Made by a program: the position numbers and the translations under genes. The notes below the pieces were generated by a model. The model was not told where the DNA came from. It saw only the letters and a program-made list of their open reading frames with translations, and made no database searches. Shown here in pieces: positions 2,445 through 30,502 of a stretch of DNA of 64,000 bases. The stretch comes from a virus: IMG/VR virus record IMGVR_UViG_3300020037_005798, positions 4,764 through 68,763 of that record. One strand, written 5' to 3'. Each line of letters begins with the position of its first letter. Within the stretch, counting starts at the first letter, position 1.

Positions 2445-3281
2445 TTAATTGTTATAAATTTTTTCCCAAAATGTTTTTATTTCATCATTTTTGTCTTTAG
2501 AAGAAATTAATATTCTTCCTTTTAATTGAGGTGCTCTACTTCCAGCAACAATGCTATCATTTAAAACATCAAAATTAATGTATCTTTCATCCCCCTCAGC
2601 AACTAATTTTCCTAAAGCGGTAACTTTAGATGCAAATATTCTTTTAAGCTGTCCTGTAAGAGCTATTTCACTTCCTACTACTTCTTCTTTACCATTATCT
2701 TTGATATATTTATCAGTAATGTGAGCAGCATAAATTCTGTAAGGGCTAATTTGTCTAAAAATGTCAATTTGATCTAAAAACCATTTTCTTGTGTGTTGGT
2801 AACCTGCACCATCAGGTAATGTAATAACAGATTTCCATTCAGGATCTCCTACTTCATACTGTTCACCATAAGAACCACTTCCTAATTTAGGTCTATTAAA
2901 GTTTTTACCTATAATAGAGTTCATATAAGCCTTTGTTCCTCCAATTTCAGATAAAGCATCTAAATCTGATAGACCATCAATAATTAAATATTCATACTTT
3001 CCTTTATTCTCTAATAAAAGATTACGATATGAAATATAATTTTGAAAACTTTCATATAAATTAGTAGACTGATCTGTATATGTAGACATTTTTCTAGCTT
3101 TAATGTATTCATATCCTCCTTTTTCAAGGTCTAATACTAAAGCATTGTTTTTTGTTGTGAAATCTCCAAGTATTGTACCTTTACCCATTTTAGGTATAGA
3201 TAAAATAACCAGATCTCTTGGTGCTGATAAGTGAATATCACTTATTTCATCGGGTAATCTCAATTCTTTTTTTTCTTCCAT
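2445..3281 (-). CDS. AAA_24/Sak4-like ATPase (recombination)
   Basis: Walker A SIPKMGKG, LDLEKG, Walker B LIIDG, and AAH motif. Confidence 0.75.
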   Translation of the reverse strand: MEEKKELRLPDEISDIHLSAPRDLVILSIPKMGKGTILGDFTTKNNALVLDLEKGGYEYIKARKMSTYTDQSTNLYESFQNYISYRNLLLENKGKYEYLIIDGLSDLDALSEIGGTKAYMNSIIGKNFNRPKLGSGSYGEQYEVGDPEWKSVITLPDGAGYQHTRKWFLDQIDIFRQISPYRIYAAHITDKYIKDNGKEEVVGSEIALTGQLKRIFASKVTALGKLVAEGDERYINFDVLNDSIVAGSRAPQLKGRILISSKDKNDEIKTFWEKIYNN

Positions 3282-3299
3282 GTTTATCTAATTTAATTG

Positions 3300-3608
3300 T
3301 TATAAAAATTCTTTCTTAAATTTTTTATTAGTTGTAATATCAATTTTTGCTCCATTAATAAGAGCTTCATAAGCTGTTTTTGACATTACTAAATCAGCTG
3401 TGTGATCTGTTCCAATACCTATAGTAACACTTACTGTTTCTACAAAATACTCAGATCTGTAACCTGGTTGGTTAATACATAAATTAGCTTTTGGACTAAT
3501 TTTTATTTCTTTACCAAGTGTGGAAAATTTTTCAATAATTTGTTTGTACTCTCTAGTAACTGGTCTTCCTGGTTCATTAACCATAATAACCTCCATTCCT
3601 GTTTTCAT
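3300..3608 (-). CDS. Hypothetical protein
   Basis: 102 aa ORF with a promoter-like element upstream. Confidence 0.6.
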   Translation of the reverse strand: MKTGMEVIMVNEPGRPVTREYKQIIEKFSTLGKEIKISPKANLCINQPGYRSEYFVETVSVTIGIGTDHTADLVMSKTAYEALINGAKIDITTNKKFKKEFL

Positions 3609-3657: not shown

Positions 3658-4734
3658 TTACAAAAATTCAATCTTATTTTTATCAAAAAATTCTAAAGAT
3701 TTTCTTAACCAATTAACTTCAACTTCTTCTTTTGTACTAATAATGTATATTATAGCTAGTTTTTCAGGGTTGTCATATTCATATGCCATACATCTGTTTA
3801 TTTTTTGAGTAAAGTTTTCACCATTACTATCAAAGTCTGCTAATATTACACAATTTAATGGTTTATAAGTAGTTCCTGTATTACCAATTTTAACTACTGC
3901 AAGATGATTTCCTATTCCTTCACAAAATTCTTGAAAGATAGTTTTATCTTTTGTTTTATTATGAAAAGATGGTATTCCTAAAGAATCAGCAATCTCTGTT
4001 CTTCCACAAAAGACTAAAGCTCTTTTATCTCCTAATTGTTTTAAGAGTTTTTTAGCTTCTATTACTTTACAAGGACTGTTTTGTAATATAGATTTTCTTT
4101 TTAACTTTAAGAATTTAGTATCTTTCCCTTCTTCAGTTAGTTTTTTAATTACATAAGATACATTATCATAATAAGCTTTTTCAGTTTTAGCTTTACCACT
4201 ATATAATTTAATAGTTTTAGCATCTAGTTCAGTACTTATTATTTTAATTCTATAATCACTAATTACTTTCTCATCAATAGCTTTTTGAATAGAATATTTA
4301 GCAACTACTCTAAGTTTCAAACTTCTTTTTAGATAAGATTCAGTTTGAGAAGTTAAAGTACCAGTTAATCCTAATATACAAGTATTCTTAATAAACAATT
4401 TTTGACAAGCCAATACTTGTGAAGTAGATAATAAATGAATCTCATCAATGATAACAATATCATAAATCTCAGTAACAAGTTTTTTGAGGGATAGATGAGT
4501 AGTGTATGTAACATTACTATCATCATAATTCATAGTCTCAAAATCTCTTTTCCAAGAATCTTTGATATTGTTATCAGGATAAGCTATTAATATTTTTGGA
4601 TTATTATATTTTTCCAATATTAGAATACTAGTTCTTATTTTACCAAAACGTGGGCATAAATTAAGGATACCTCTTTTTCCAGTTCTTTCAAAAATCTGAG
4701 AAAACTCTAATTGTCTTTGATCTCTTAAAGTCAT
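3658..4734 (-). CDS. Superfamily 2 helicase
   Basis: Q-motif LRDQRQ, CPRFGKI (Walker A), IIDEIH (DExH), GLTGT (motif III), QKINR (motif VI). Confidence 0.85.
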   Translation of the reverse strand: MTLRDQRQLEFSQIFERTGKRGILNLCPRFGKIRTSILILEKYNNPKILIAYPDNNIKDSWKRDFETMNYDDSNVTYTTHLSLKKLVTEIYDIVIIDEIHLLSTSQVLACQKLFIKNTCILGLTGTLTSQTESYLKRSLKLRVVAKYSIQKAIDEKVISDYRIKIISTELDAKTIKLYSGKAKTEKAYYDNVSYVIKKLTEEGKDTKFLKLKRKSILQNSPCKVIEAKKLLKQLGDKRALVFCGRTEIADSLGIPSFHNKTKDKTIFQEFCEGIGNHLAVVKIGNTGTTYKPLNCVILADFDSNGENFTQKINRCMAYEYDNPEKLAIIYIISTKEEVEVNWLRKSLEFFDKNKIEFL

Positions 4735-12760: not shown

Positions 12761-13372
12761 TTATTTCTTTTTAAATTGTTCAAACCATTCATCTACATTT
12801 GTTGTATTTTCTGAAATTAAATTTTCGGAAACACCCATTTTATGAGACATATCATAATAGAAATTAAATGCCATTTTTTTAGCTTCTTCCTCACTATAAC
12901 TTCTTTCTTGTTTATTTATTTGCCATTTAGCACCATTAATGAAATGTTTAGTGGTTATTTTTTGATGTTTTGCATATCCTGGAGGAACCAACTGACCTGG
13001 TGGTATTGATTGCTTTTCTCCTTGTTTATTTAAAGGCCATATAAAACTTTTATGAGCATAGTTTTTAGCAGCTTCTTCAAGTGTTTCTTGTTTAGGTTTA
13101 GCATAACATTCATTATCTGATTGAGATGTTTCAGCTCCACAGTATTTACAAATATGTGTTTCTTGTTTATCAACGTGGGTAATTGTAATACCTCTTTCAA
13201 TTTCTTGTTTAGGTTCTTTTATTAAACTTTCCATTGCTATATTATGACAATGTTCTATATGTCTTGAAGTGTAATCTTGTTTAAGTTTAAAAAGATAACA
13301 TTCCCCGCAAACAACAGAACAATTATGAAAAGCACAAAAGCAAATATTTGGTTGGTCTATTTCTTTGTTCAT
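12761..13372 (-). CDS. Mosaic hypothetical protein with PKQE repeats
   Basis: EPKQE, KQET and KPKQETLEEAA segments; Cys pairs. Confidence 0.65.
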   Translation of the reverse strand: MNKEIDQPNICFCAFHNCSVVCGECYLFKLKQDYTSRHIEHCHNIAMESLIKEPKQEIERGITITHVDKQETHICKYCGAETSQSDNECYAKPKQETLEEAAKNYAHKSFIWPLNKQGEKQSIPPGQLVPPGYAKHQKITTKHFINGAKWQINKQERSYSEEEAKKMAFNFYYDMSHKMGVSENLISENTTNVDEWFEQFKKK

Positions 13373-14121
13373 ATTCTTTTAAGTTTAAATTTACTTTTCA
13401 ATTCTTCATATACTTTTTCACCATCTAAATACATATCACCACTTTTTGTTGGTTTAAATTTCCAAGCAAGTATTCCAAATAAATCATCCCATATTTTAAA
13501 ATCTTCTTCAACCGTTTCTTGTTCATCATAAGGGTCAATACCCATTGTGTATTTAGACATATCAATTTTTTGTTTAGGTTCTATATAACCAACTTTTTCT
13601 TGTGTTGATTTTGGAAAATTTGACCAATCTATTTTTACTTTTGGAAGTGGTTCTTCACTTGGGATGATTATTTCATAACTATCGTGAGTAAAATTTTCAT
13701 CATCATTCCATAAAATATCAACATCAACTTCCTCACAACTTGGATTCTTTACAAACCATTCTAAAAACTCAGTAGAAATAGCCTGTATGCCATCTTTAAT
13801 GAGGTCTTGGTCTGTTGTTAGAATGATTTTATAAACTTCATTTCTTTTACAAAAACCAAAACCAATATCTTCTTTAGCGTCAATCATTAATTGCTCTTCA
13901 TATATATAATGACATTTTCTTATTCTACCGTGAGAATGTTCATATTTTAATAACATATAATCTCCTTCTTTAATTTCTTCATCAGAAGTGATGTAGATAT
14001 TTTGATTTTGACAATCTAATTCGATATTTTCTAACATTTGATTATCAAATCCTAGCCCTTCTTCTTTGGTTATAAAGATTCTACTTGGTTTATCTGTTGA
14101 TAATATGTGAATATTTTTCAT
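13369..14121 (-). CDS. Mosaic hypothetical protein
   Basis: MKNIHILSTDKPSR...KIILTTDQDLIKDG...EFLEWFVKNPSCE; EPKQ repeat. Confidence 0.65.
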   Translation of the reverse strand: MKNIHILSTDKPSRIFITKEEGLGFDNQMLENIELDCQNQNIYITSDEEIKEGDYMLLKYEHSHGRIRKCHYIYEEQLMIDAKEDIGFGFCKRNEVYKIILTTDQDLIKDGIQAISTEFLEWFVKNPSCEEVDVDILWNDDENFTHDSYEIIIPSEEPLPKVKIDWSNFPKSTQEKVGYIEPKQKIDMSKYTMGIDPYDEQETVEEDFKIWDDLFGILAWKFKPTKSGDMYLDGEKVYEELKSKFKLKRI

Positions 14122-17191: not shown

Positions 17192-17219
17192 TTTTATAAA
17201 ATATTTAATTAATAATAGT

Positions 17220-17293
17220 ATGGGAGATAGGACTCGAACCTACAACCTACGCTATGTTTAAGTGCGTTGCTCTACCACTTGAGCTACTCCCAA
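17220..17293 (-). tRNA. Atypical tRNA or tRNA-like RNA with 11-nt anticodon loop
   Basis: TGGGAG/CTCCCA acceptor, D-arm GCTC-AAGTGGTA-GAGC, T-arm GTAGG-TTCGAGT-CCTAT, anticodon arm ACGC-ACTTAAACATA-GCGT. Confidence 0.8.
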
Positions 17294-17298
17294 AATTT

Positions 17299-19443
17299 TT
17301 AAAACTTAATCTTAACTGTTCTTTTAAAAGAACCTGATAATTTAACTATCAATTCATCTTTTACAGTAGCATTAAACCCTAATCCAGATAATTGTTTAGG
17401 TATAGAATCAACTTTAATACTAGTTCCTAATGTTTCTAAAACTTTTCTATGTTTAGCTAAATCAGGAATAAGATTTTCCATATGGAAACTTGTTATAGGT
17501 GTTGGAGAAATACAATTTTCTAACATAAAGAAGTAATGTTTATTACCTACTTTGTTTTCATCCCAATGATTAGGACTTAAACAAACAAGATTAACTTTAT
17601 GAAACTGATTAGTTTCTAAACCATAAAATTCTTTTGTTACTCCTTCTCCTTCACTACAAGGCATATTATGCTCTACAGTAAATTCTCCATTTTTGTATAC
17701 AACTGTTGCTACATTAATATTTTTGTTTGTAGCAATAGAGCTATTATGAGAATAATTAAATGTTTTACCATCAACTTCTATTTCCGCTTTAAAACCTTTA
17801 CTGTTACTTCCTCTAAATTGATTAATCCAGAAAGTATATTTACCTTCTTTCATTTTTTTTAATTCTTTAAAGTAAATATTTTCAGCATGTGTACCAGGAA
17901 CATTACCTCTATCATCTAAATCTAATTGTCCTGATAAAGCTGTAAATTTATTACCAGAATCTTTTCTGTAACCAGCATTAAATCCTATTCTTACACCATC
18001 AGGTTGTAAACACCATAAATCTAAATCAGAATTATCATTTTGATTTTCATCATTCCAGATACCAGAGAATCTTAATACACCATCTATATTACCTCCTTTG
18101 GATTTAACAACTTGTTTAATTTGACTTTTACCTGCAAGATTACCATTAAAAGTCCAAGAATAGTTATTATCCCATTTGAATATAGGAATACTATTAGGAT
18201 TTTTAGAAGTAGTAAGTGTAACAAAATTGTTTTCATGCTCATTAACTACAAAAGCTTCTACAGAAGAACAATTAGGTAATATTTCAGAAATGAATTTTTC
18301 AATAGACACCTCTTCAACACCATCAAATTCATTTCTTTTATGTCTTGTTGAAGCAGCTGGTTTAACTCCATCAAAAATAGAAACATTTTTGATTTTATTA
18401 TTACCACCATTAGCATGCAAAATTTCAGATACTTTAATATCATCTATAGTAGCCATTCTTCTGTCAAAAGATTCTGTAAAACCATTTTCTTCAACAAATT
18501 TTTGTGCTTCTTCAATTTGTCTTTTACTAATAGGAGCAACAGCTTTCATATAATTTACAGGATCTACTCTGTAATTCCAAGTTTTGCAAGCTTCATTAAT
18601 CTCTTTACCTTCAGATAATTCAACACATAATGTACCAATTAATTCATTTCTGAATTTAGCTAAAGGAAACTTATATGAAGTTATCCAACACCAATTGTCT
18701 TTTTTATCAGCAGCTAAAGTATCATATACTTGTTTAAATCCTAATATGGTTTCTACTTTGTGAAGATGTGTTTGGCCATCTAATAAAGAACCTTGAATAA
18801 TAAGATCTCTTACTAATATTAAAGTATCAGCAGAAATTTCATCCATAGCTCTTTTGAAAACATTTTTTGCATCTCTAAATTCACCACTAATAGCTTCAAT
18901 AGATTGATTAGTAAAACTTACAAACTGTTTTGGTAAATCCAAATGCATATGATTAAAAGTATAAGTTTTATCAACTTCTACATGTCCATAAGCAGCAGCT
19001 TCAGTAGCATTATATTGTTTATAGTTTACAGCTGTACCTAATCTAAATATATCATTTGTCTTTTTACAAGACTCATATGGTAAACTATTAAGTTCATCAA
19101 ATGTTTCAATAAATATATCTTTAATATTCGCTTGTTTAACAGCAGTAGCCATAGCTAAAGCACTAGCCTTATACTCTTCATCAGCAAGAACATCAAATAT
19201 TGTTATAATATTATTATTAGCATCTAATGCTACAATATTACCATAACGTCTAACAAAGTTATTACAATGATTACAATTATGATAACTGGATGCTGGATCT
19301 CTAAATACAGGATCATGTTCTTTTGGAAAAGCTTTTAAATACATTGTCCATAATGCATGACCAGATATTTCTGATCTAAATAATTTACCAGTTGCACACA
19401 TCCTAGCAAACTGTTCTTGGAGTTGTTGATTGAAATTTTTCAT
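17299..19443 (-). CDS. Large conserved phage protein with C-terminal DLDL (YfaP/DUF2135-like) domain
   Basis: HNCNHC motif; VLRFSGIWND...SDLDLWC...GQLDLD...AENI. Confidence 0.6.
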   Translation of the reverse strand: MKNFNQQLQEQFARMCATGKLFRSEISGHALWTMYLKAFPKEHDPVFRDPASSYHNCNHCNNFVRRYGNIVALDANNNIITIFDVLADEEYKASALAMATAVKQANIKDIFIETFDELNSLPYESCKKTNDIFRLGTAVNYKQYNATEAAAYGHVEVDKTYTFNHMHLDLPKQFVSFTNQSIEAISGEFRDAKNVFKRAMDEISADTLILVRDLIIQGSLLDGQTHLHKVETILGFKQVYDTLAADKKDNWCWITSYKFPLAKFRNELIGTLCVELSEGKEINEACKTWNYRVDPVNYMKAVAPISKRQIEEAQKFVEENGFTESFDRRMATIDDIKVSEILHANGGNNKIKNVSIFDGVKPAASTRHKRNEFDGVEEVSIEKFISEILPNCSSVEAFVVNEHENNFVTLTTSKNPNSIPIFKWDNNYSWTFNGNLAGKSQIKQVVKSKGGNIDGVLRFSGIWNDENQNDNSDLDLWCLQPDGVRIGFNAGYRKDSGNKFTALSGQLDLDDRGNVPGTHAENIYFKELKKMKEGKYTFWINQFRGSNSKGFKAEIEVDGKTFNYSHNSSIATNKNINVATVVYKNGEFTVEHNMPCSEGEGVTKEFYGLETNQFHKVNLVCLSPNHWDENKVGNKHYFFMLENCISPTPITSFHMENLIPDLAKHRKVLETLGTSIKVDSIPKQLSGLGFNATVKDELIVKLSGSFKRTVKIKF

Positions 19444-19471
19444 GTTTATATATAATTATTGTTTAATAAAT

Positions 19472-19503
19472 AAAAAACACCACACTATTTCTAATGTGGT
19501 GTT
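19472..19503 (-). terminator. Intrinsic terminator closing the ncRNA array
   Basis: AACACCACAUUA-GAAA-UAGUGUGGUGUU then UUUU. Confidence 0.75.
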
Positions 19504-19509
19504 AGTTTT

Positions 19510-20432
19510 TGTAATAACCTCTCGTAAAAGTAATTACATTGTAAACCTAGTATTAGCACCCTCTTGTCTTATTAAATCATCCAGTAAATACATACTGTTG
19601 CATTTCATTTAATAAGAGTAGGGTCACGTAGTTAATATGACGTTTGCTGATTGCTACCAATTAAGGTGTAATACAACGGTTCTTTAACTACTTGCTGAGA
19701 ACTCCCAAGAGTTTATAATAGCATATCTCATACAGCTATATCTCTTCTACTATATTTCTATAGAGTTTCTATCAGGGTTTAGATTTTTTAAATATGCTTC
19801 CAAATATATTACTATATGAATTTTAGAATTATAAGAGCAAGACCCTCTTTTGCTGGACTAAATGCAAACGCTGGATTTTTACTTGACCTATTACGTGGTA
19901 TTTCCAAAGCCCACCACTTATAATTCAAGGACTGTGATAACCTCATCAATACTCCAGTTAGATTAACGTATCCGCTATCGTTACCTTAATTATTCCATGC
20001 ATTGTTTGCGGTTATGGAAGCTGGTTTATATCAACTACATACAGTTTATGTATTAATCCTGTATGGGATTGTTAAAGTACAATTCTAAACTTTTATTAGA
20101 CTATCCTATCAGATATGCCCAAGAGTTCAGGTTGTTGGTGCTAACCCTCTCTCAGAGACTGCTGCATATCATTCATACCCAACGCGTATTTAGATAAGAT
20201 AGTTATTTTAAAAACCACACACCCTTCAAGATAGGAATAAACATTTTCAGCATACTAACGTTGTCCATTGACATTCTACATACTTACTTATCATACTCAA
20301 CAAACGTAACACTTCTTGTAGTGTCGTAAATCCAGGTTATAAACTTTGGTCCCAATCCTATCTTCAAGTCTTATAATAGGAGTTATCCAGTAGGCCAACT
20401 TCATTACTTGTTTGTCTTTCTATGTGTGATTT
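19510..20432 (-). ncRNA. Tandem array of structured non-coding RNAs (about five domains)
   Basis: About 920 nt without a credible ORF, GC-richer than flanks; closing stems define 20212-20432, 20100-20203, 19928-20086, 19826-19926 and 19542-19781. Confidence 0.7.
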
Positions 20433-20437
20433 CTATC

Positions 20438-20752
20438 TTATTTAACTTGTTTTCCTTCTACACCTCTTTTTATTCTGTCAGAGGTTCTTTTGTTCAACCA
20501 TAACAAAGCTTCATCTAATTTTGTTATAGCAATAGCATTTTCTCTACAAGGAAATTTTGATTGTAAGAAGTTTAAACGGTCTAACAGAACTTCAATAACT
20601 TCTTCGTTAGTTGTACCATCAGAAATAGTTAATAATTCTGTAGAACCTTCTTCTCTTGGTTCTTTGTGAATGAATTGAAGAATTTGTCCTTCAGGATCTT
20701 TATCTTCAAAGTTTTCTAGAGCATATGTATGCCCAGGGATAAGATTTGTCAT
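20438..20752 (-). CDS. tad1: Tad1-like anti-defence signalling-molecule sponge
   Basis: GTTNEEVIEVLLDRLNFLQSKFPCRENAIAITKLDEALLWLNKRTSDRIKRGVEG matches the recalled Tad1 core (DRL..FQ...F..REN..A.T..EEAL.W.N.R..DRI.R.V.G). Confidence 0.8.
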   Translation of the reverse strand: MTNLIPGHTYALENFEDKDPEGQILQFIHKEPREEGSTELLTISDGTTNEEVIEVLLDRLNFLQSKFPCRENAIAITKLDEALLWLNKRTSDRIKRGVEGKQVK

Positions 20753-20780
20753 TTTTATTTATTTTTTAAAATGATATTTG

Positions 20781-20788
20781 CAAAGGTA
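20781..20788 (-). promoter_or_regulatory. Bacteroidota-type -7 promoter element
   Basis: TACCTTTG about 30 nt upstream of the tad1 start. Confidence 0.6.
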
Positions 20789-20945
20789 GTGTCTATTTGC
20801 ATTTTATTTAATAATTCTTCTGCAGACATTTTCTTTGCTTCATCAATAATTTTTTGTTTTTGATCTTGAATGTTTAAATCCACTCTAGCCTCACTAGCCA
20901 TATTTTTAAAATTAATCCCTGTTACTTTTAATAACAGGGATATGA

Positions 20946-22535
20946 TTAATACTGAATTAACTCTTCACAACCCTCTTTGTTATGACAGAAAATCTTTCTG
21001 TTTTCACATATTTGAATTTGTTTTCCACCAGAATCAATACAAAGTTGTTTTAACTGATCACTAAATTGTAACAAAGAAACTGCATTGACTTTGTAAGGAA
21101 AGTTTGAAACATGTACTTTATCTTGACCATCATTTATAATTAAAATTTCAGGTAATTCTCTGGATAAATCAACTTTTAAGTTGTGTAATTTTCCACTTTT
21201 TACTTCATCTGCAACATATTGTACAATTCTACCAATGTCTGTTGTACTTCCTCCTGGATAGTTAGAAAAGGTTGACCAAAATTCATTAACACTTTTTTCA
21301 TCTTTAAGATGATAAAATTTCAAATCATAGGTACTACTAACAAAGAAACTAAAGAAGATTTCTGCTTCTCCTTTAATTACATATTTCATTCTTTCCATAA
21401 GGATTCCATTAACCCAATTTTGTTTCTTTCTATCAGACATACTTCCTGAATAATCACAAAGAATAATAAGCTTTTGCTTTTTTTCAGAACGATTAACAGG
21501 CATGTTGATAATTAAATCTTTGGTAAGAAATCTTGTTTCAAAATTAGGTAACATTCTTTGTATCATGTCAACTTTGGTTACTTGTTCAAAAGAAGACATT
21601 ACTTTTTTCTTGTATGTAATAGCATTGTGTACTTCTTTCTCACTAACATCTAATTCTACTTTAAATTCTTCTCCCATTTTACCAACAAGAGAAATATTGT
21701 TTAATGTTTCAAATCTACTATCTTGAGCATATGGATTTTTATCAACAAGATTATTTAGAATAGGATTACAAAAAACATCTCTTTCAAAAACAGCAATAGA
21801 AGTAGAAGATTGACCAGGATTTCCTTGAGCATTACGATTAGCTTCAGTATCTGTTATTCTCCAATGAATAGCTATTGCTTGTTCTAAAGGGCTGAATCCA
21901 GGTAAAAAAGTATCATATATTTCATCAAGAACTTGTTTTTTCTTTGCAAAATCTTCTAGCTTAATAGGAATAGTTTCATCTTTAGAATATAACTCTGATA
22001 AGTATTCTCTATCATCAATCATTTTAAAGTAACAAACTCTGGCGTATTCTTTTATTGTATCAATTTTATCTCTTGAATAAACAGCTACTTTTTGTTTGAT
22101 TTCTTCTGCTGTTGGGGTTAAATAACTTTCAGGTTCTTTAACCATCAACTTAGAATTATCATCAATTTCTGTTGTATCATGAGTAAATCCGTAGAAATTA
22201 TAATTTGACCACTTTTTAGGTGTCCAAGCAAATTCTTTCTTTTTTTCAGGTTCTATCCAATGTGAATGTCTATGATTTCTTTCTCTTGGGTAGCTATCAT
22301 AATAATTATATTCATCTGAAGCTACATAAGCTGATGCACCATAAACATCATCATTATGATTTGGTTTATAAGACCCTGGGCCTTGTCCATAGACAGGAGT
22401 TCTTCTAATAGTATTTTCATGATCTTCTTTTTTACGAAATTCATAACGCATACTATTTGGACCTAGCTCTCTAGCTATTATTTCTCTTACTGAGGGCTTT
22501 TTCTTTTTATTACCTGATTTTGACCACCAATCCAT
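20946..22535 (-). CDS. vWA (MIDAS) domain protein
   Basis: LCDYSGSM (DxSxS), GGSTTDI, IINDG; adjacent to MoxR ATPase. Confidence 0.85.
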   Translation of the reverse strand: MDWWSKSGNKKKKPSVREIIARELGPNSMRYEFRKKEDHENTIRRTPVYGQGPGSYKPNHNDDVYGASAYVASDEYNYYDSYPRERNHRHSHWIEPEKKKEFAWTPKKWSNYNFYGFTHDTTEIDDNSKLMVKEPESYLTPTAEEIKQKVAVYSRDKIDTIKEYARVCYFKMIDDREYLSELYSKDETIPIKLEDFAKKKQVLDEIYDTFLPGFSPLEQAIAIHWRITDTEANRNAQGNPGQSSTSIAVFERDVFCNPILNNLVDKNPYAQDSRFETLNNISLVGKMGEEFKVELDVSEKEVHNAITYKKKVMSSFEQVTKVDMIQRMLPNFETRFLTKDLIINMPVNRSEKKQKLIILCDYSGSMSDRKKQNWVNGILMERMKYVIKGEAEIFFSFFVSSTYDLKFYHLKDEKSVNEFWSTFSNYPGGSTTDIGRIVQYVADEVKSGKLHNLKVDLSRELPEILIINDGQDKVHVSNFPYKVNAVSLLQFSDQLKQLCIDSGGKQIQICENRKIFCHNKEGCEELIQY

Positions 22536-22546
22536 AAAAAGGAGTA

Positions 22547-23689
22547 TTACAAGCGACTTGTAGCAGTTGCTCTACGTTTTGGTTTTGTCTCTTTTATAGA
22601 AGAATCAGAATTTACTTCTTGTTCTTTAGCATTATCTGCTAAAGCTTCTACAATTGCTCCAGGGGTAACAGCATCAATAGCTTTTTTCTTGTTTAAAGCT
22701 CTGTGATATTTGTCTTTGAAATCAATAAGTTTTTCAGAACATTTTTTAACTACAGCTGTGTGTGTAGCTACCAAATCATCACTTACTACTAATTTTCTTA
22801 AAGCTCTTTCAGTATTTAAGATTATAGTATAGTCTTCAATGATTTCTAAATACTCTTCATCTGTACTAATAACAATTCTTTTTGAAGAATCATCAACATT
22901 CATTGTTAATTCTTTAAACTTAACAGTTGCTTCAAATTTCTTTAAAGTTTCTGTAATTAAGTTAGCTTTTTTGCAGAAATCAGCAATAAACATTAAAGAA
23001 TCAGGACCACACTCTTGATAAATATCATAAGCATCCAATGCTATACGAGGACTAATGGTAATACCATTTTTAGCATATTGTTCCAAAATAAAAGGAATAA
23101 TAGGATCAACACTATCTTCACCAAATCTTTTTTGCAAAAGAGTATTATAACTGGTTTCATTATAGTTATCCCATATTACATTTAATTCTAAAGGAAATCT
23201 TTCCATTAAAGCTTTGATGGAATCATTTTTAGCATACTCCTCTCTAGTTTTGTTGGTACAACAAATAATAAATTGAGTTTTTATTGGAAATACCTGAGTT
23301 CCGTTTCTGAAGAACCCTGAAGAAAGAGTATCTTTCAATTGTTCCAAAATAAAATCAGGAGCATCCATCATCTCTTCAAGAATCACAAATTCATGATTCA
23401 TAAAAGAGTTTTCAACAAGATATTCAATTTTACCTTCTTTTAATAAAGGAATATTAATACCTCCAAACAACCTTTCGGTTGTCATACCAGAACCCATAGT
23501 AATAATATATGGATTAATACCTTTATCATAAAGATATTCTAAAGCAAAATCTGATTTACCATGTCCTCCAGGACCATACAGAATTACATTTTTACTTGTT
23601 TTCAGACCAACATCAAGTATTTTATTGGCTTTATCCATAAATACAAATCTGTCTAATAAACTTCTTTTTTCTTCAACTGCTTCTTTCAT
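22547..23689 (-). CDS. MoxR/RavA-like AAA+ ATPase
   Basis: GPGGHGKS, RLFGG, Walker B variant VILEEM, CCTN, ALMERF, ISPR. Confidence 0.85.
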   Translation of the reverse strand: MKEAVEEKRSLLDRFVFMDKANKILDVGLKTSKNVILYGPGGHGKSDFALEYLYDKGINPYIITMGSGMTTERLFGGINIPLLKEGKIEYLVENSFMNHEFVILEEMMDAPDFILEQLKDTLSSGFFRNGTQVFPIKTQFIICCTNKTREEYAKNDSIKALMERFPLELNVIWDNYNETSYNTLLQKRFGEDSVDPIIPFILEQYAKNGITISPRIALDAYDIYQECGPDSLMFIADFCKKANLITETLKKFEATVKFKELTMNVDDSSKRIVISTDEEYLEIIEDYTIILNTERALRKLVVSDDLVATHTAVVKKCSEKLIDFKDKYHRALNKKKAIDAVTPGAIVEALADNAKEQEVNSDSSIKETKPKRRATATSRL

Positions 23690-29465: not shown

Positions 29466-29861
29466 CTAAAAGGTTCCATCTTTCAAAGTTTTTTCTAACC
29501 ATTCTTTAGCTTCATCAACACTACTAGACATATGTCCATTACAGTTTTCACTTGCAGTCATATTAGCAACATCCATTACTATTTCTCTAAACTCTTCAGT
29601 TAATCTATTATTATTTCTAATAATACTTAATAAAGAAATACCAGAATTAAAAGTTGCTATTTGTCTCCACATTAGAGTACCAGCATCACTATTATCCTTA
29701 CTACCACCTTTTCTACCTGCATATCTAATAGCAGTATTATCAAATCCAAAGAACTGCATATTTCTTACAGCATTAACAGCATAAATCTCTTCTTGAGTTT
29801 CTCCTGTTAAATCCCAACCAATAGGATTATTTTTTTCGTCTTTTACGATTTCTAATTTCAT
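29466..29861 (-). CDS. Hypothetical protein
   Basis: 131 aa ORF. Confidence 0.6.
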   Translation of the reverse strand: MKLEIVKDEKNNPIGWDLTGETQEEIYAVNAVRNMQFFGFDNTAIRYAGRKGGSKDNSDAGTLMWRQIATFNSGISLLSIIRNNNRLTEEFREIVMDVANMTASENCNGHMSSSVDEAKEWLEKTLKDGTF

Positions 29862-29889
29862 AGTATTTGTTTTTAAGATTGATAAAAAT

Positions 29890-29917
29890 AAAAAACCCCC
29901 ATATTACTATGAGGGTT
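29890..29917 (-). terminator. Terminator after tmRNA
   Basis: AACCCUCAUA-GUAA-UAUGGGGGUU then a U-run. Confidence 0.7.
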
Positions 29918-29919
29918 AG

Positions 29920-30178
29920 TAAAAATTTCGCTTTTCTTGCGGAATTATGCTACCATTCTTAATGGTGCATTATTCATTTGGATAACTTTTGAAGTTATTG
30001 TTTAATAATTCTCGTTGAGTCCTACTGTATTGCTGTCAAATCCCGTTATCCCCTGATTTACCGCTTGTTATTTAAACTCGTAGCGATGAAACGAGGCAAT
30101 CAACTTATAAACGGATTTCTAGTGGAGATAGAGGGAGTTGAACCCTCGTCCAAACAATGTTCAAAAACAAGTCAACAA
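29920..30178 (-). ncRNA. ssrA: Circularly permuted (two-piece) tmRNA
   Basis: Acceptor piece GGAC-GAGGG-UUCAACU-CCCUC-UAUCUCC-A (30123-30151) precedes coding piece starting GGGGAUA...GAUUUGAC (30053); G3:U70 pair; tag frame SKVIQMNNAPLRMVA* at 29945-29992. Confidence 0.88.
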
Positions 30179-30202
30179 ATTATTATGCTGTAAATATATA
30201 AA

Positions 30203-30502
30203 TTAAAAATCATCTGCAACACCATTGTAAGCTAAATGACTATAATCAACATAAGCGTATTTAGAATTTCTTGCATTATGATTTTGTATTCTATGAAATT
30301 TATCTTCTTTTGCTAAACCACAATTTAATTTGCGCCAAACTTGTTTATAGTTTTCATCTGTTATTTCTTTAAAATCAGTATAAATTCTAAGATTAAATTT
30401 AAGCTGTTTTGTAGTAAGATTTTTAACTCTTCTTATTTCTGCTTTATTTAAATTTAAAAGAAGTAATTTATTTTTAAATTCTGTTGGGTTTAATTTAGCC
30501 AT
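30203..30502 (-). CDS. Hypothetical protein
   Basis: 99 aa basic protein. Confidence 0.55.
   Translation of the reverse strand: MAKLNPTEFKNKLLLLNLNKAEIRRVKNLTTKQLKFNLRIYTDFKEITDENYKQVWRKLNCGLAKEDKFHRIQNHNARNSKYAYVDYSHLAYNGVADDF

Follow-up and report, generated by a model that had tools for sequence, protein, structure and literature searches.

Two families of structured RNA in a probable array of RNA genes from a distant crAss-like phage

The DNA analysed here, a stretch of 64,000 nt that we call the window, makes up most of IMG/VR virus record IMGVR_UViG_3300020037_005798 (68.8 kb, rated 59% complete), and the subject of this report is a gap in its protein genes between a tad1-like gene and a gene for a 714-aa protein. 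We judge it very probable that the gap, which belongs to the early arm of a distant crAss-like phage, carries exchangeable genes for structured RNAs that are transcribed together as an array. It holds at least two RNA genes from two new, well-supported families, A and E, together with one lineage-specific domain, B. The large terminase subunit (TerL) of the window is 42% identical to that of Leptolyngbya phage Lbo-JY46, 31% to those of Cellulophaga phages phi17:2 and phi4:1 and ~26% to those of gut crAss-like phages, which makes the window phage a distant relative of the crAss-like assemblage. Unless stated otherwise, window coordinates refer to minus-strand features of this 64-kb stretch.

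A first-pass annotation, made from the sequence alone, had described the segment as free of open reading frames (ORFs), richer in G+C than its surroundings, beginning 5 nt after the tad1 stop codon and ending at a terminator with a GAAA loop, and each of these observations stands. The gap (19444–20437, between two minus-strand genes) contains no ORF of at least 60 amino acids under four genetic codes: table 11 yields none, and reading TAG as glutamine, TGA as tryptophan or TAA as glutamine opens no long or plausible minus-strand frame. A recoded protein gene was rejected, as the alternative codes open no plausible frame and the window has no suppressor tRNA, its sole tRNA by ARAGORN being a tRNA-Phe(AAA). 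The G+C content is 0.32–0.37 in the gap versus 0.27–0.30 in the flanking genes, and folding gives -230.5 kcal/mol for the minus strand (z -3.78, 20 shuffles) against -201.5 kcal/mol (z -2.17, 20 shuffles) for the plus strand. At the downstream end, terminator search and folding place a 3′ trailer (19466–19552) that comprises a small hairpin and then an intrinsic terminator with a 12-pair stem (19503–19476), the GAAA loop and a U tract. This is the only terminator-like site within 19300–20900, and it lies just outside position 19510, where the first-pass annotation had set the segment's edge. Some 35 nt 5′ of the ATG of the tad1-like gene is the window's sole minus-strand TACCTTTG box (20781–20788), of the type TAnnTTTG, which we take to be a Bacteroidota-type -7 element; it would serve as the promoter of the whole unit. 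No internal promoter is claimed: the candidate TATATTTG at 19808 is absent from L144, a near-identical metagenome contig, and from the contigs of relatives. Taken together, the lack of ORFs, the base composition, the minus-strand fold, the terminator and the promoter box make the raw observation sound.

RNA A: a predicted three-way junction with complementary loops

RNA A spans 222 nt (20211–20432). Locus L086, retrieved by search with a closing stem resembling that of A, shares short blocks of 97–100% identity with the window amid diverged sequence, and a 22-mer block from the core of A is present in 27 IMG/VR stretches and in none of 185,579 prokaryote genomes. A blastn search of GenBank phages with a typical A sequence returned one chance match only. 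Our alignment, A2, has 18 distinct rows, namely L086 and 17 of the 19 distinct complete copies; L099 and L106 (long inserts), L092 and L097 (cut by locus ends) and six exact duplicates are omitted. A profile hidden Markov model (HMM) of the family built without the window matches 20432–20211 (E 3e-31, model positions 4–190 of 192), and the family cores AUAGAAAGACAAAC, CAAGAAGUGUUAYGUUUGUUGAG and AUCUUG are all present in the window's row.

The modelled structure is enclosed by helix P1 (AAAUCACAC/GUGUGGUUU, 20432–20422 with 20220–20212), which the first-pass annotation had already proposed as the closing helix and which covaries on A2. Helix P2 pairs GACAAACA with CGUUUGUU (20416–20409 with 20306–20299; GACAAACA/UGUUUGUU in the family form), while helices P3 and P5 close variable inserts 1 and 2, respectively, whose length differences are not multiples of three. 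Hairpin P4 (20325–20308) bears the family loop A(U)CAAGA, and hairpin P6 (within 20240–20221) the family loop AUCUUGA. An inner helix put forward earlier, AAGAUAGGA/UCCUAUCUU, is not conserved: it pairs a window-specific insert with the segment that forms P6 in the family.

In the window, the P4 loop CAAGA (20318–20314) is complementary to the P6 loop UCUUG (20231–20227) over 5 bp, and the contact between P4 and P6 is 100% paired across the family (A2). Its outermost, sixth pair is U-A in six cases and C-G in two, with a mismatch in 0/8; the other five pairs are invariant. The contact could be intramolecular or could join two molecules. Over the whole model, 94.4% of cells are paired versus 39–47% with the partners slid, none of 500 shuffles scored as high, 13 pairs have changed on both sides in a compensatory manner, and G.U pairs are confined to the modelled strand. 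Members measure 160–290 nt. The alignment thus argues strongly that RNA A belongs to a conserved, previously undescribed phage RNA family, whose predicted fold of six helices includes a closing helix and a three-way junction, along with two variable inserts and complementary hairpin loops of 6–7 nt.

Just 3′ of A in L089, L093, L096, L098 and L111 stands a conserved ~60-nt element, CGCUACGUA..CACGGCCGGAUAACACGUACAGACAAGG..GGUCAGUCCGGG, followed by a U tract. Its role could be that of another small RNA module or of a structured terminator.

The large RNA and its conserved 3′ core

The remainder of the array, which the first-pass annotation had divided into domains C, D and E, is best described as one large RNA of ~515 nt (19553–20065), a divergent member of family E by virtue of an HMM match at its 3′ end and an alignment, A5, of its 5′ part. 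The pattern of the E core occurs in 33 IMG/VR stretches. Among the prokaryote genomes it occurs only in two contigs of metagenome-assembled genomes (MAGs) labelled Clostridium sp., L146 and L147 (100,089 and 5,724 nt); the former is phage-sized and thus likely a binned phage contig. We extracted 22 distinct full-length family-E RNAs of 259–738 nt, leaving aside 13 loci without a 5′ or 3′ marker and two duplicates, and aligned the 15 of at most 400 nt as A4. The family structure on A4 opens with hairpin H1 (loop UAAACAUUGA) and helix H2, which closes an insert; H3 (loop AGUAAU) follows, then H4 around H5 (loop CUUGAGAAA), H6 and a long, bulged H7. In this model 91.9% of cells are paired versus 34–47% when slid, 20 pairs carry compensatory changes, and 0/500 shuffles scored as high.

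An HMM of these 15 members, without the window, matches 19704–19551 (E 6.4e-19, positions 167–317 of 318), and the family's 3′ core, consisting of the junction GAGUUCUCAGCAAG, H6, H7 and GGGUGCUAA, is present in the window. There the 3′ domain (19553–19803, the former E) begins with a window-specific variant of H4/H5 (19803 to ~19707), a form it has in common with L107. It continues with the conserved junction GGGAGUUCUCAGCAAG (19706–19691), H6 (GUAGUUAA with UUAACUAC, 19691–19684 with 19635–19628) and H7 (GACCCUACUCUUAU... with ...AUAAGACAAGAGGGUGCUAA, 19625–19607 with 19577–19553). Both H6 and H7, the latter noted earlier as a stem starting UCUUAU, had been recognised in the first-pass annotation and are supported on A4.

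The 5′ domain (19804–20065, the former C and D) was resolved on A5. It starts with the hairpin CAUACAG/CUGUAUG (20065–20038), followed by a helix of GUUGAUA with UAUUGAU (20035–20029 with 19951–19945) that closes a variable insert, and by hairpin H1′, AGG-UUAUCACAGU-CCU (19944–19927), whose loop differs from that of H1 in the family. Helix H2, GAAUUAUAAG with CUUAUAAUUC (19926–19917 with 19835–19826), is the perfect 10-bp helix once assigned to domain D and also closes a variable insert; hairpin H3 (19818–19804) has the AGUAAU loop, so that both H2 and H3 of the family are present. The CCGC/GCGG loop-loop contact that the first-pass annotation proposed within C is a candidate element here. Contigs of four RNA libraries retain three conserved islands, 19804–19830, 19918–19943 and 20029–20055, and carry other sequence in between. 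A search pattern based on the last island found seven IMG/VR loci, L148–L154. The order CAUACAG/CUGUAUG, GUUGAUA/UAUCAAC with insert, AGG-UUAUCACAGU-CCU, H2 and H3 recurs in L149–L154; in L150, L152 and L154 the 5′ domain is followed by the family-E core from H3/H4 on, L149 and L153 match part of the core, and L148 and L151 do not match it. On the six sequences of A5, 93.6% of cells are paired versus 27–53% when slid, and five pairs have compensatory changes. The GUUGAUA helix contains three G.U pairs in the window at places where relatives have G-C or U-A, which fits an RNA on the minus strand. The shared order of elements and the pairing on A5 indicate that C, D and E are a single RNA, with an invariant family-E core as its 3′ half and a subfamily-specific domain as its 5′ half.

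Two further candidates in family E were tried and set aside. The sequence GGTTAAACATTGAA..TACCTTTG was considered as a promoter, but covariation of the stems on either side in 38 distinct contexts shows H1 to be an RNA hairpin. A long-range pairing of ACCUUU with AGGGU offered by RNAalifold was rejected because the H1 variants GCAC, UGCU and ACGAC break it yet covary within the hairpin.

A 20-mer of H1′/H2 has no occurrence in IMG/VR and two matches in metagenome contigs, one of which, L145, is a GC-rich chance match. Searching GenBank phages by blastn with the whole region gave no match, and only the E query matched Cellulophaga phages. In one of these, phi17:2, a 42-nt match to E lies between two tRNAs.

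Could the region be non-functional DNA, such as a decayed gene, a recombination scar, or a replication or regulatory element at the DNA level? Near-identical genomes do differ here by mosaic indels, and C and D taken alone (z -1.44 and -0.71) fold no better than shuffles. Set against this are the compensatory changes and strand-specific G.U pairs in three alignments, the conservation of the elements across phages of 20–309 kb, the failure of any code tried to open a frame, and insert lengths that differ by non-multiples of three. We regard this explanation as almost certainly wrong.

A lineage-specific hairpin domain

Domain B (20100–20203) is predicted by thermodynamic folding to form a closed hairpin domain, ACUAUCUUAUC/GAUAGGAUAGU with an inner GAUAUGC/GCAUAUC helix. 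Its minimum free energy is -31.1 kcal/mol (z -2.91), and two of 200 shuffles folded as well. No homologues were detected by nhmmer in ~140 loci or by a 19-mer scan of IMG/VR. The domain is missing along with A in contig L144 and present in record 1 of RNA-library contig X15. Restricted to this lineage, the predicted hairpin domain makes up a single 340-nt cassette together with A. A spacer or leader (20066–20099), defined by the alignment of window and L144 (A3), separates this cassette from the large RNA.

Modular occurrence beside tRNA and tmRNA genes

The clearest view of how the array is put together comes from L144 (363–1340), which shares 97–99% identity with the window over the tad1-like gene, the gene for the 714-aa protein and sequence further out. 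In this contig the tad1 stop is joined directly to C and the ~340 nt of A+B (20098–20437) are absent; the joint falls at ~20094–20098, where A3 shows AATAA microhomology. L144 also carries a canonical GAUGUGUUG...CCCUUUAGAAAGG version where the window has 19803–19573. Across the wider set, the A profile matched one of 29 new E loci (L141, with two A copies) and the E profile matched seven of 27 A loci at E <1e-15, both profiles including the window's row; L110 and L127 are on one contig. A and E are colinear in the window and in L086, L090, L094, L105, L106 and L107, with spacers of 176–660 nt. These comparisons indicate that A and the large RNA are independent evolutionary modules, and that A+B, C+D and the H4/H5 portion of E are cassette-like, being present, missing or exchanged from one near-identical genome to the next.

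The same data bear on whether A through E might be a single RNA of ~920 nt that functions as a unit in the manner of the phage RNA GOLLD. The only terminator stands at the end of the array, the window and the six other loci have A and E in colinear order, and one RNA-library contig extends from within A to the E core. However, A occurs without E in 20/27 A loci and E without A in 28/29 new E loci, L144 keeps C-D-E without A+B, tRNA genes bracket A in L087 and L100, and canonical E RNAs have a 5′ hairpin of their own at their start, immediately following A or a tRNA. A single RNA is therefore quite unlikely. Of the two options left by the first-pass annotation, several co-transcribed RNAs comes closest to what we find, A and C-D-E each occurring elsewhere without the other. 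As for one large non-coding RNA the size of GOLLD or ROOL, C+D+E at ~515 nt is in that range, with A as an independent module outside it. The division into five domains likewise survives in part: A is a separate module and B, by its fold, a hairpin domain of its own, but C, D and E belong together in one RNA.

Members of both families mostly have phage tRNA and tmRNA genes as neighbours, and A usually stands inside a tRNA array. A starts at the base after tRNA-Leu in L087 and L100 and is followed by tRNA-Thr; E starts at the end of tRNA-Met in L128; and a tmRNA follows E in L090, L141 and the cultured phage phi14:2 (L142). In locus L141 (4576–7310), two copies of A are followed in series by a family-E RNA, a tmRNA and two tRNAs. 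ARAGORN also reports tRNA-like genes with odd anticodon loops, 'gaaa' in L100 (6136–6212) and 'aa' in L141 (7122–7197).

Neither family is tied to one kind of genome. In a search of four whole records, a 309-kb record with A and a 270-kb record with E had no terminase like that of the window. G004, a 110-kb record with E, encodes a TerL 81% identical to the window's and has neither Tad1 nor a homologue of the 714-aa protein. Together with the differing synteny, the records without a window-like terminase suggest that the families reach beyond crAss-like phages and that their genome position is plastic; the elements are conserved in phages from 20 kb to 309 kb.

Clustering of ORFs from the loci brought up a protein of 250–320 aa (12 loci), HNH endonucleases and a metallophosphatase. 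The 250–320-aa protein has no Pfam or PHROG family and is encoded on the same strand, 0.1–3.3 kb from the family-E RNA, in 11 of 12 loci. Homologues include window 13369–14121 (minus strand, 5.5 kb off), L086 4806–5708 and L131 5154–6113, among others.

An expressed homologue in phage phi14:2

Cellulophaga phage phi14:2 (Crassvirales) supplies the link between family E and a transcript. The family-E HMM without the window gives a full-length match there (NC_021806 ~2908–3367, plus strand, E 3.4e-43), inside the g004-g005 region and within a stretch of ~1.7 kb in which RefSeq removed all small ORFs. In the sections at hand, a preprint on this phage reports that the g004-g005 region produces an abundant long non-coding RNA of unknown function, with transcription above that of most protein genes from the earliest time point, and that the g004-g005 and g005-g006 regions show no later drop, unlike other early transcripts (10.1101/2020.03.07.982082). 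Those sections assign the RNA no structure, family or function. The strand of the E RNA is the reported direction of transcription. The g005-g006 region holds a tmRNA by ARAGORN (L142 3346–3815, NC_021806 ~4031–4500), which scores 46 bits in Rfam against a gathering score of 47.

The phi14:2 RNA is homologous to the window's large RNA, although the window's match covers the 3′ half only (E 6.4e-19) and its 5′ domain differs in the CAUACAG hairpin, the H1′ loop UUAUCACAGU and the H4/H5 variant. Unlike the window, the phi14:2 locus has neither a tad1-like gene nor RNA A.

For the window phage itself, contigs of four RNA libraries (X15, X17, X18 and X19; Logan) fall on the region. One of them, 765 nt long, bridges 20324 to 19804 and then 19693 to 19611. 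No such contig falls on 19300–19554 or 20473–20800 in the flanking genes, an absence we do not count as evidence. In metagenome DNA runs from wastewater, sludge and manure (13 studies), 38–79% of sampled words from 19300–20800 are present.

One relative's RNA-library contig leads from a tRNA 3′ end straight into A (loose end at 20423), and this, together with the tRNA that immediately precedes A in L087 and L100 and the tRNA-Met at whose end E starts in L128, would suit a different role: that of processing or insulator elements in polycistronic RNA-gene transcripts, whether self-cleaving ribozymes or structures for RNase entry or arrest, with no function in trans. No credible Rfam ribozyme match appears at E up to 10, a mere spacer would need neither such sizes (160–290 and 260–740 nt) nor so many invariant nucleotides in loops and junctions, and the RNA accumulates in phi14:2, going by those sections of the preprint. 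We consider such a role very unlikely.

The tad1-like gene and other neighbours

The gene upstream of the array (20438–20752), its stop codon 5 nt 5′ of RNA A, encodes a 104-aa Acb2/Tad1-hairpin protein (Pfam PF24729, E 1.7e-6; phrog_2428, E 1.2e-23), as the first-pass annotation had held. Downstream lies the gene for the 714-aa protein (phrog_1735, 17299–19443), identified from the ORF list and a PHROG match. IMG/VR contains 83 confirmed Tad1-like relatives, and the best 80 of the 83 loci were kept for comparison. In these 80, the RNA region gave no blastn or nhmmer match; the contexts were unrelated, with tight protein genes downstream, and neither A nor a clear E stood beside tad1 in any (0/80). 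A later HMM pass turned up one weak, partial E-like match (E 1.4e-4) upstream of the Tad1-relative gene in L029. For the 714-aa gene, four IMG/VR relatives were found, and the ~150 nt upstream of them gave no RNA match. A cis-regulatory leader, a riboswitch and a 3′ untranslated region of tad1 were each considered and dropped, given the 0/80 association and neighbours that vary among tRNA, tmRNA, terminator and other RNAs.

The proposal of the first-pass annotation that the RNAs act as decoys or aptamers linked to the Tad1 sponge finds no comparative support, and the same comparison does not favour a role as functional companions of tad1. Stated in full, the alternative holds that the RNAs counter host defence in concert with the Tad1-like sponge, binding immune signals or effectors as decoys or aptamers from within an anti-defence island. 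The RNAs do lie directly 3′ of the tad1-like gene, apparently in one transcription unit, in both the window phage and L144. Their position is in the early arm, and the phi14:2 RNA, as far as the preprint sections go, is early and persistent. Counter-defence genes are often accessory cassettes, and A+B is such a cassette. Yet the absence of A or a clear E next to any of the 80 Tad1 genes, the presence of E without Tad1 in G004 (81% TerL identity), an E locus without tad1 in phi14:2 and a conserved context of tRNA and tmRNA arrays all speak against it, and we think an anti-defence role improbable.

Other features of the neighbourhood are as follows. On the 5′ side of the tad1-like gene, 20946–23689 (minus strand) encodes a 529-aa protein with a weak VWA match and a 380-aa MoxR-type AAA ATPase (PF20030, E 4e-14). 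The tRNA-Phe (17218–17293, minus strand; Rfam tRNA 51.8 bits) has the anticodon AAA, with an unusual A at position 34, and is the nearest tRNA in the window, 2.2 kb from the RNA region. A permuted tmRNA lies at 29825–30214 (minus strand), with an Rfam tmRNA_permuted score of 52.3 bits at 29945–30180 and an ARAGORN tag of PQEKRNFY*.

Possible mode of action

For the array of RNA genes that we favour, transcription would run from the promoter of the tad1-like gene to the single terminator, and the folded modules would outlast the mRNA part. In tRNA arrays, the modules could be released by tRNA-processing enzymes. The likeliest mode of action, by analogy with GOLLD and ROOL, would be that of abundant RNAs working in trans during host takeover: assembled alone or with protein, they would act on the machinery of translation, tRNA or tmRNA rather than regulate tad1 in cis. 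This is a tentative suggestion, and a doubtful one. Going further, A and E might be the Bacteroidota-phage counterparts of ROOL and GOLLD, forming RNA-only multimers through the UCAAGA/UCUUGA loops in the case of A, acting on phage tRNAs, tmRNA or host ribosomes and being traded as plug-in cassettes. That version is unlikely as a whole; if true, the trade in cassettes would explain the A+B indel and the swapped E modules.

A number of points count against our reading of the array. The RNA-library contigs come without strand or depth profile and could derive from DNA, which makes them weak evidence for transcription, ends or strand in the window phage. H1 and H4/H5 of the window are too divergent for the family-E HMM, which covers positions 167–317 only, and A5 has only six sequences. 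A candidate pseudoknot in family E, UGAGAA with UUCUCA, never varies and is thus unproven. The structure of B is a thermodynamic prediction for a domain with no relatives. Among 791 clustered ORFs from the loci there was no constantly adjacent partner protein, and the functional analogy to GOLLD and ROOL is drawn from context.

Family E gives a structure and a family to the abundant long non-coding RNA of a cultured crAss-like phage, and since phi14:2 is a cultured carrier, on Cellulophaga baltica, the function of an ornate phage RNA class becomes genetically testable. The loci also provide evidence that such RNAs move from phage to phage as cassettes, along with a concrete structural model, and they correct the view of these RNAs as functional partners of the tad1 sponge.

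Comparison with known RNAs

Across the whole window, Rfam at gathering score reports only tmRNA_permuted and tRNA, with no hammerhead or twister. Membership in GOLLD, ROOL, OLE or raiA, raised in the first-pass annotation, is not borne out: a covariance-model search at E up to 10, run on 1301 nt that include the region, returned nine chance-level matches and none to these four. Of the Rfam ribozymes (hammerhead, twister, pistol, hatchet and others), the only match at that threshold was CoTC (14.3 bits, E 8.4; gathering score 58). In 12 related loci, Rfam found only tRNA, tmRNA and three sub-gathering chance matches (Plastid-ycf2 twice, BSnc120), none of them on A or E. Our literature searches gave no description of families A or E, a point on which the supplementary tables of the csRNA catalogue and of the phi14:2 expression study may bear.

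That catalogue was, like our loci, drawn from IMG/VR; by the part of the paper at hand, it lists 10,006 viral candidate RNAs from comparative genomics, at most 151 nt long (mean 67), including tRNA-like and unassigned motifs (PMC10690425). At that length its candidates cannot contain A or the large RNA whole, though fragments may be among them.

An older likeness is to the tRNA cluster of phage T4, which includes small stable RNAs of unknown function that are co-transcribed with the tRNAs and released by tRNA processing. These are shorter than A and E, and the likeness is one of description.

Few RNAs without a known function are as striking as GOLLD and ROOL, most of which come from phages and prophages of Firmicutes type. 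The sections of the literature at hand describe both as phage and prophage RNAs of unknown function, often near tRNA islands; ROOL as ~600 nt long and very abundant where measured; GOLLD as having a conserved 3′ and a variable 5′ region; and kissing loops seen by covariation as intermolecular contacts in RNA-only cages (PMC12286853). Phage-encoded copies near tRNA islands are what we find for A in L087 and L100 and for E in L128, L090, L141 and L142. Family E resembles GOLLD in that its 3′ half is conserved and its 5′ half variable and in having tRNA-Met or tmRNA genes nearby, and differs from it in lacking an Rfam match, in sequence and helices, and in its smaller size (259–738 nt). ROOL is likewise phage-encoded near tRNA islands, and A has a conserved, covarying loop-loop complementarity. 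Neither A nor E has an Rfam match to ROOL, and the contigs that hold them are from lytic-type phages, apparently of Bacteroidota type; ROOL is common in prophages, while A and E are absent from the 185,579 prokaryote genomes except for the E core in the two MAG contigs. A and E thus represent two further families, unrelated in sequence to GOLLD and ROOL, in the tRNA and tmRNA neighbourhood of crAss-like and jumbo phage contigs.

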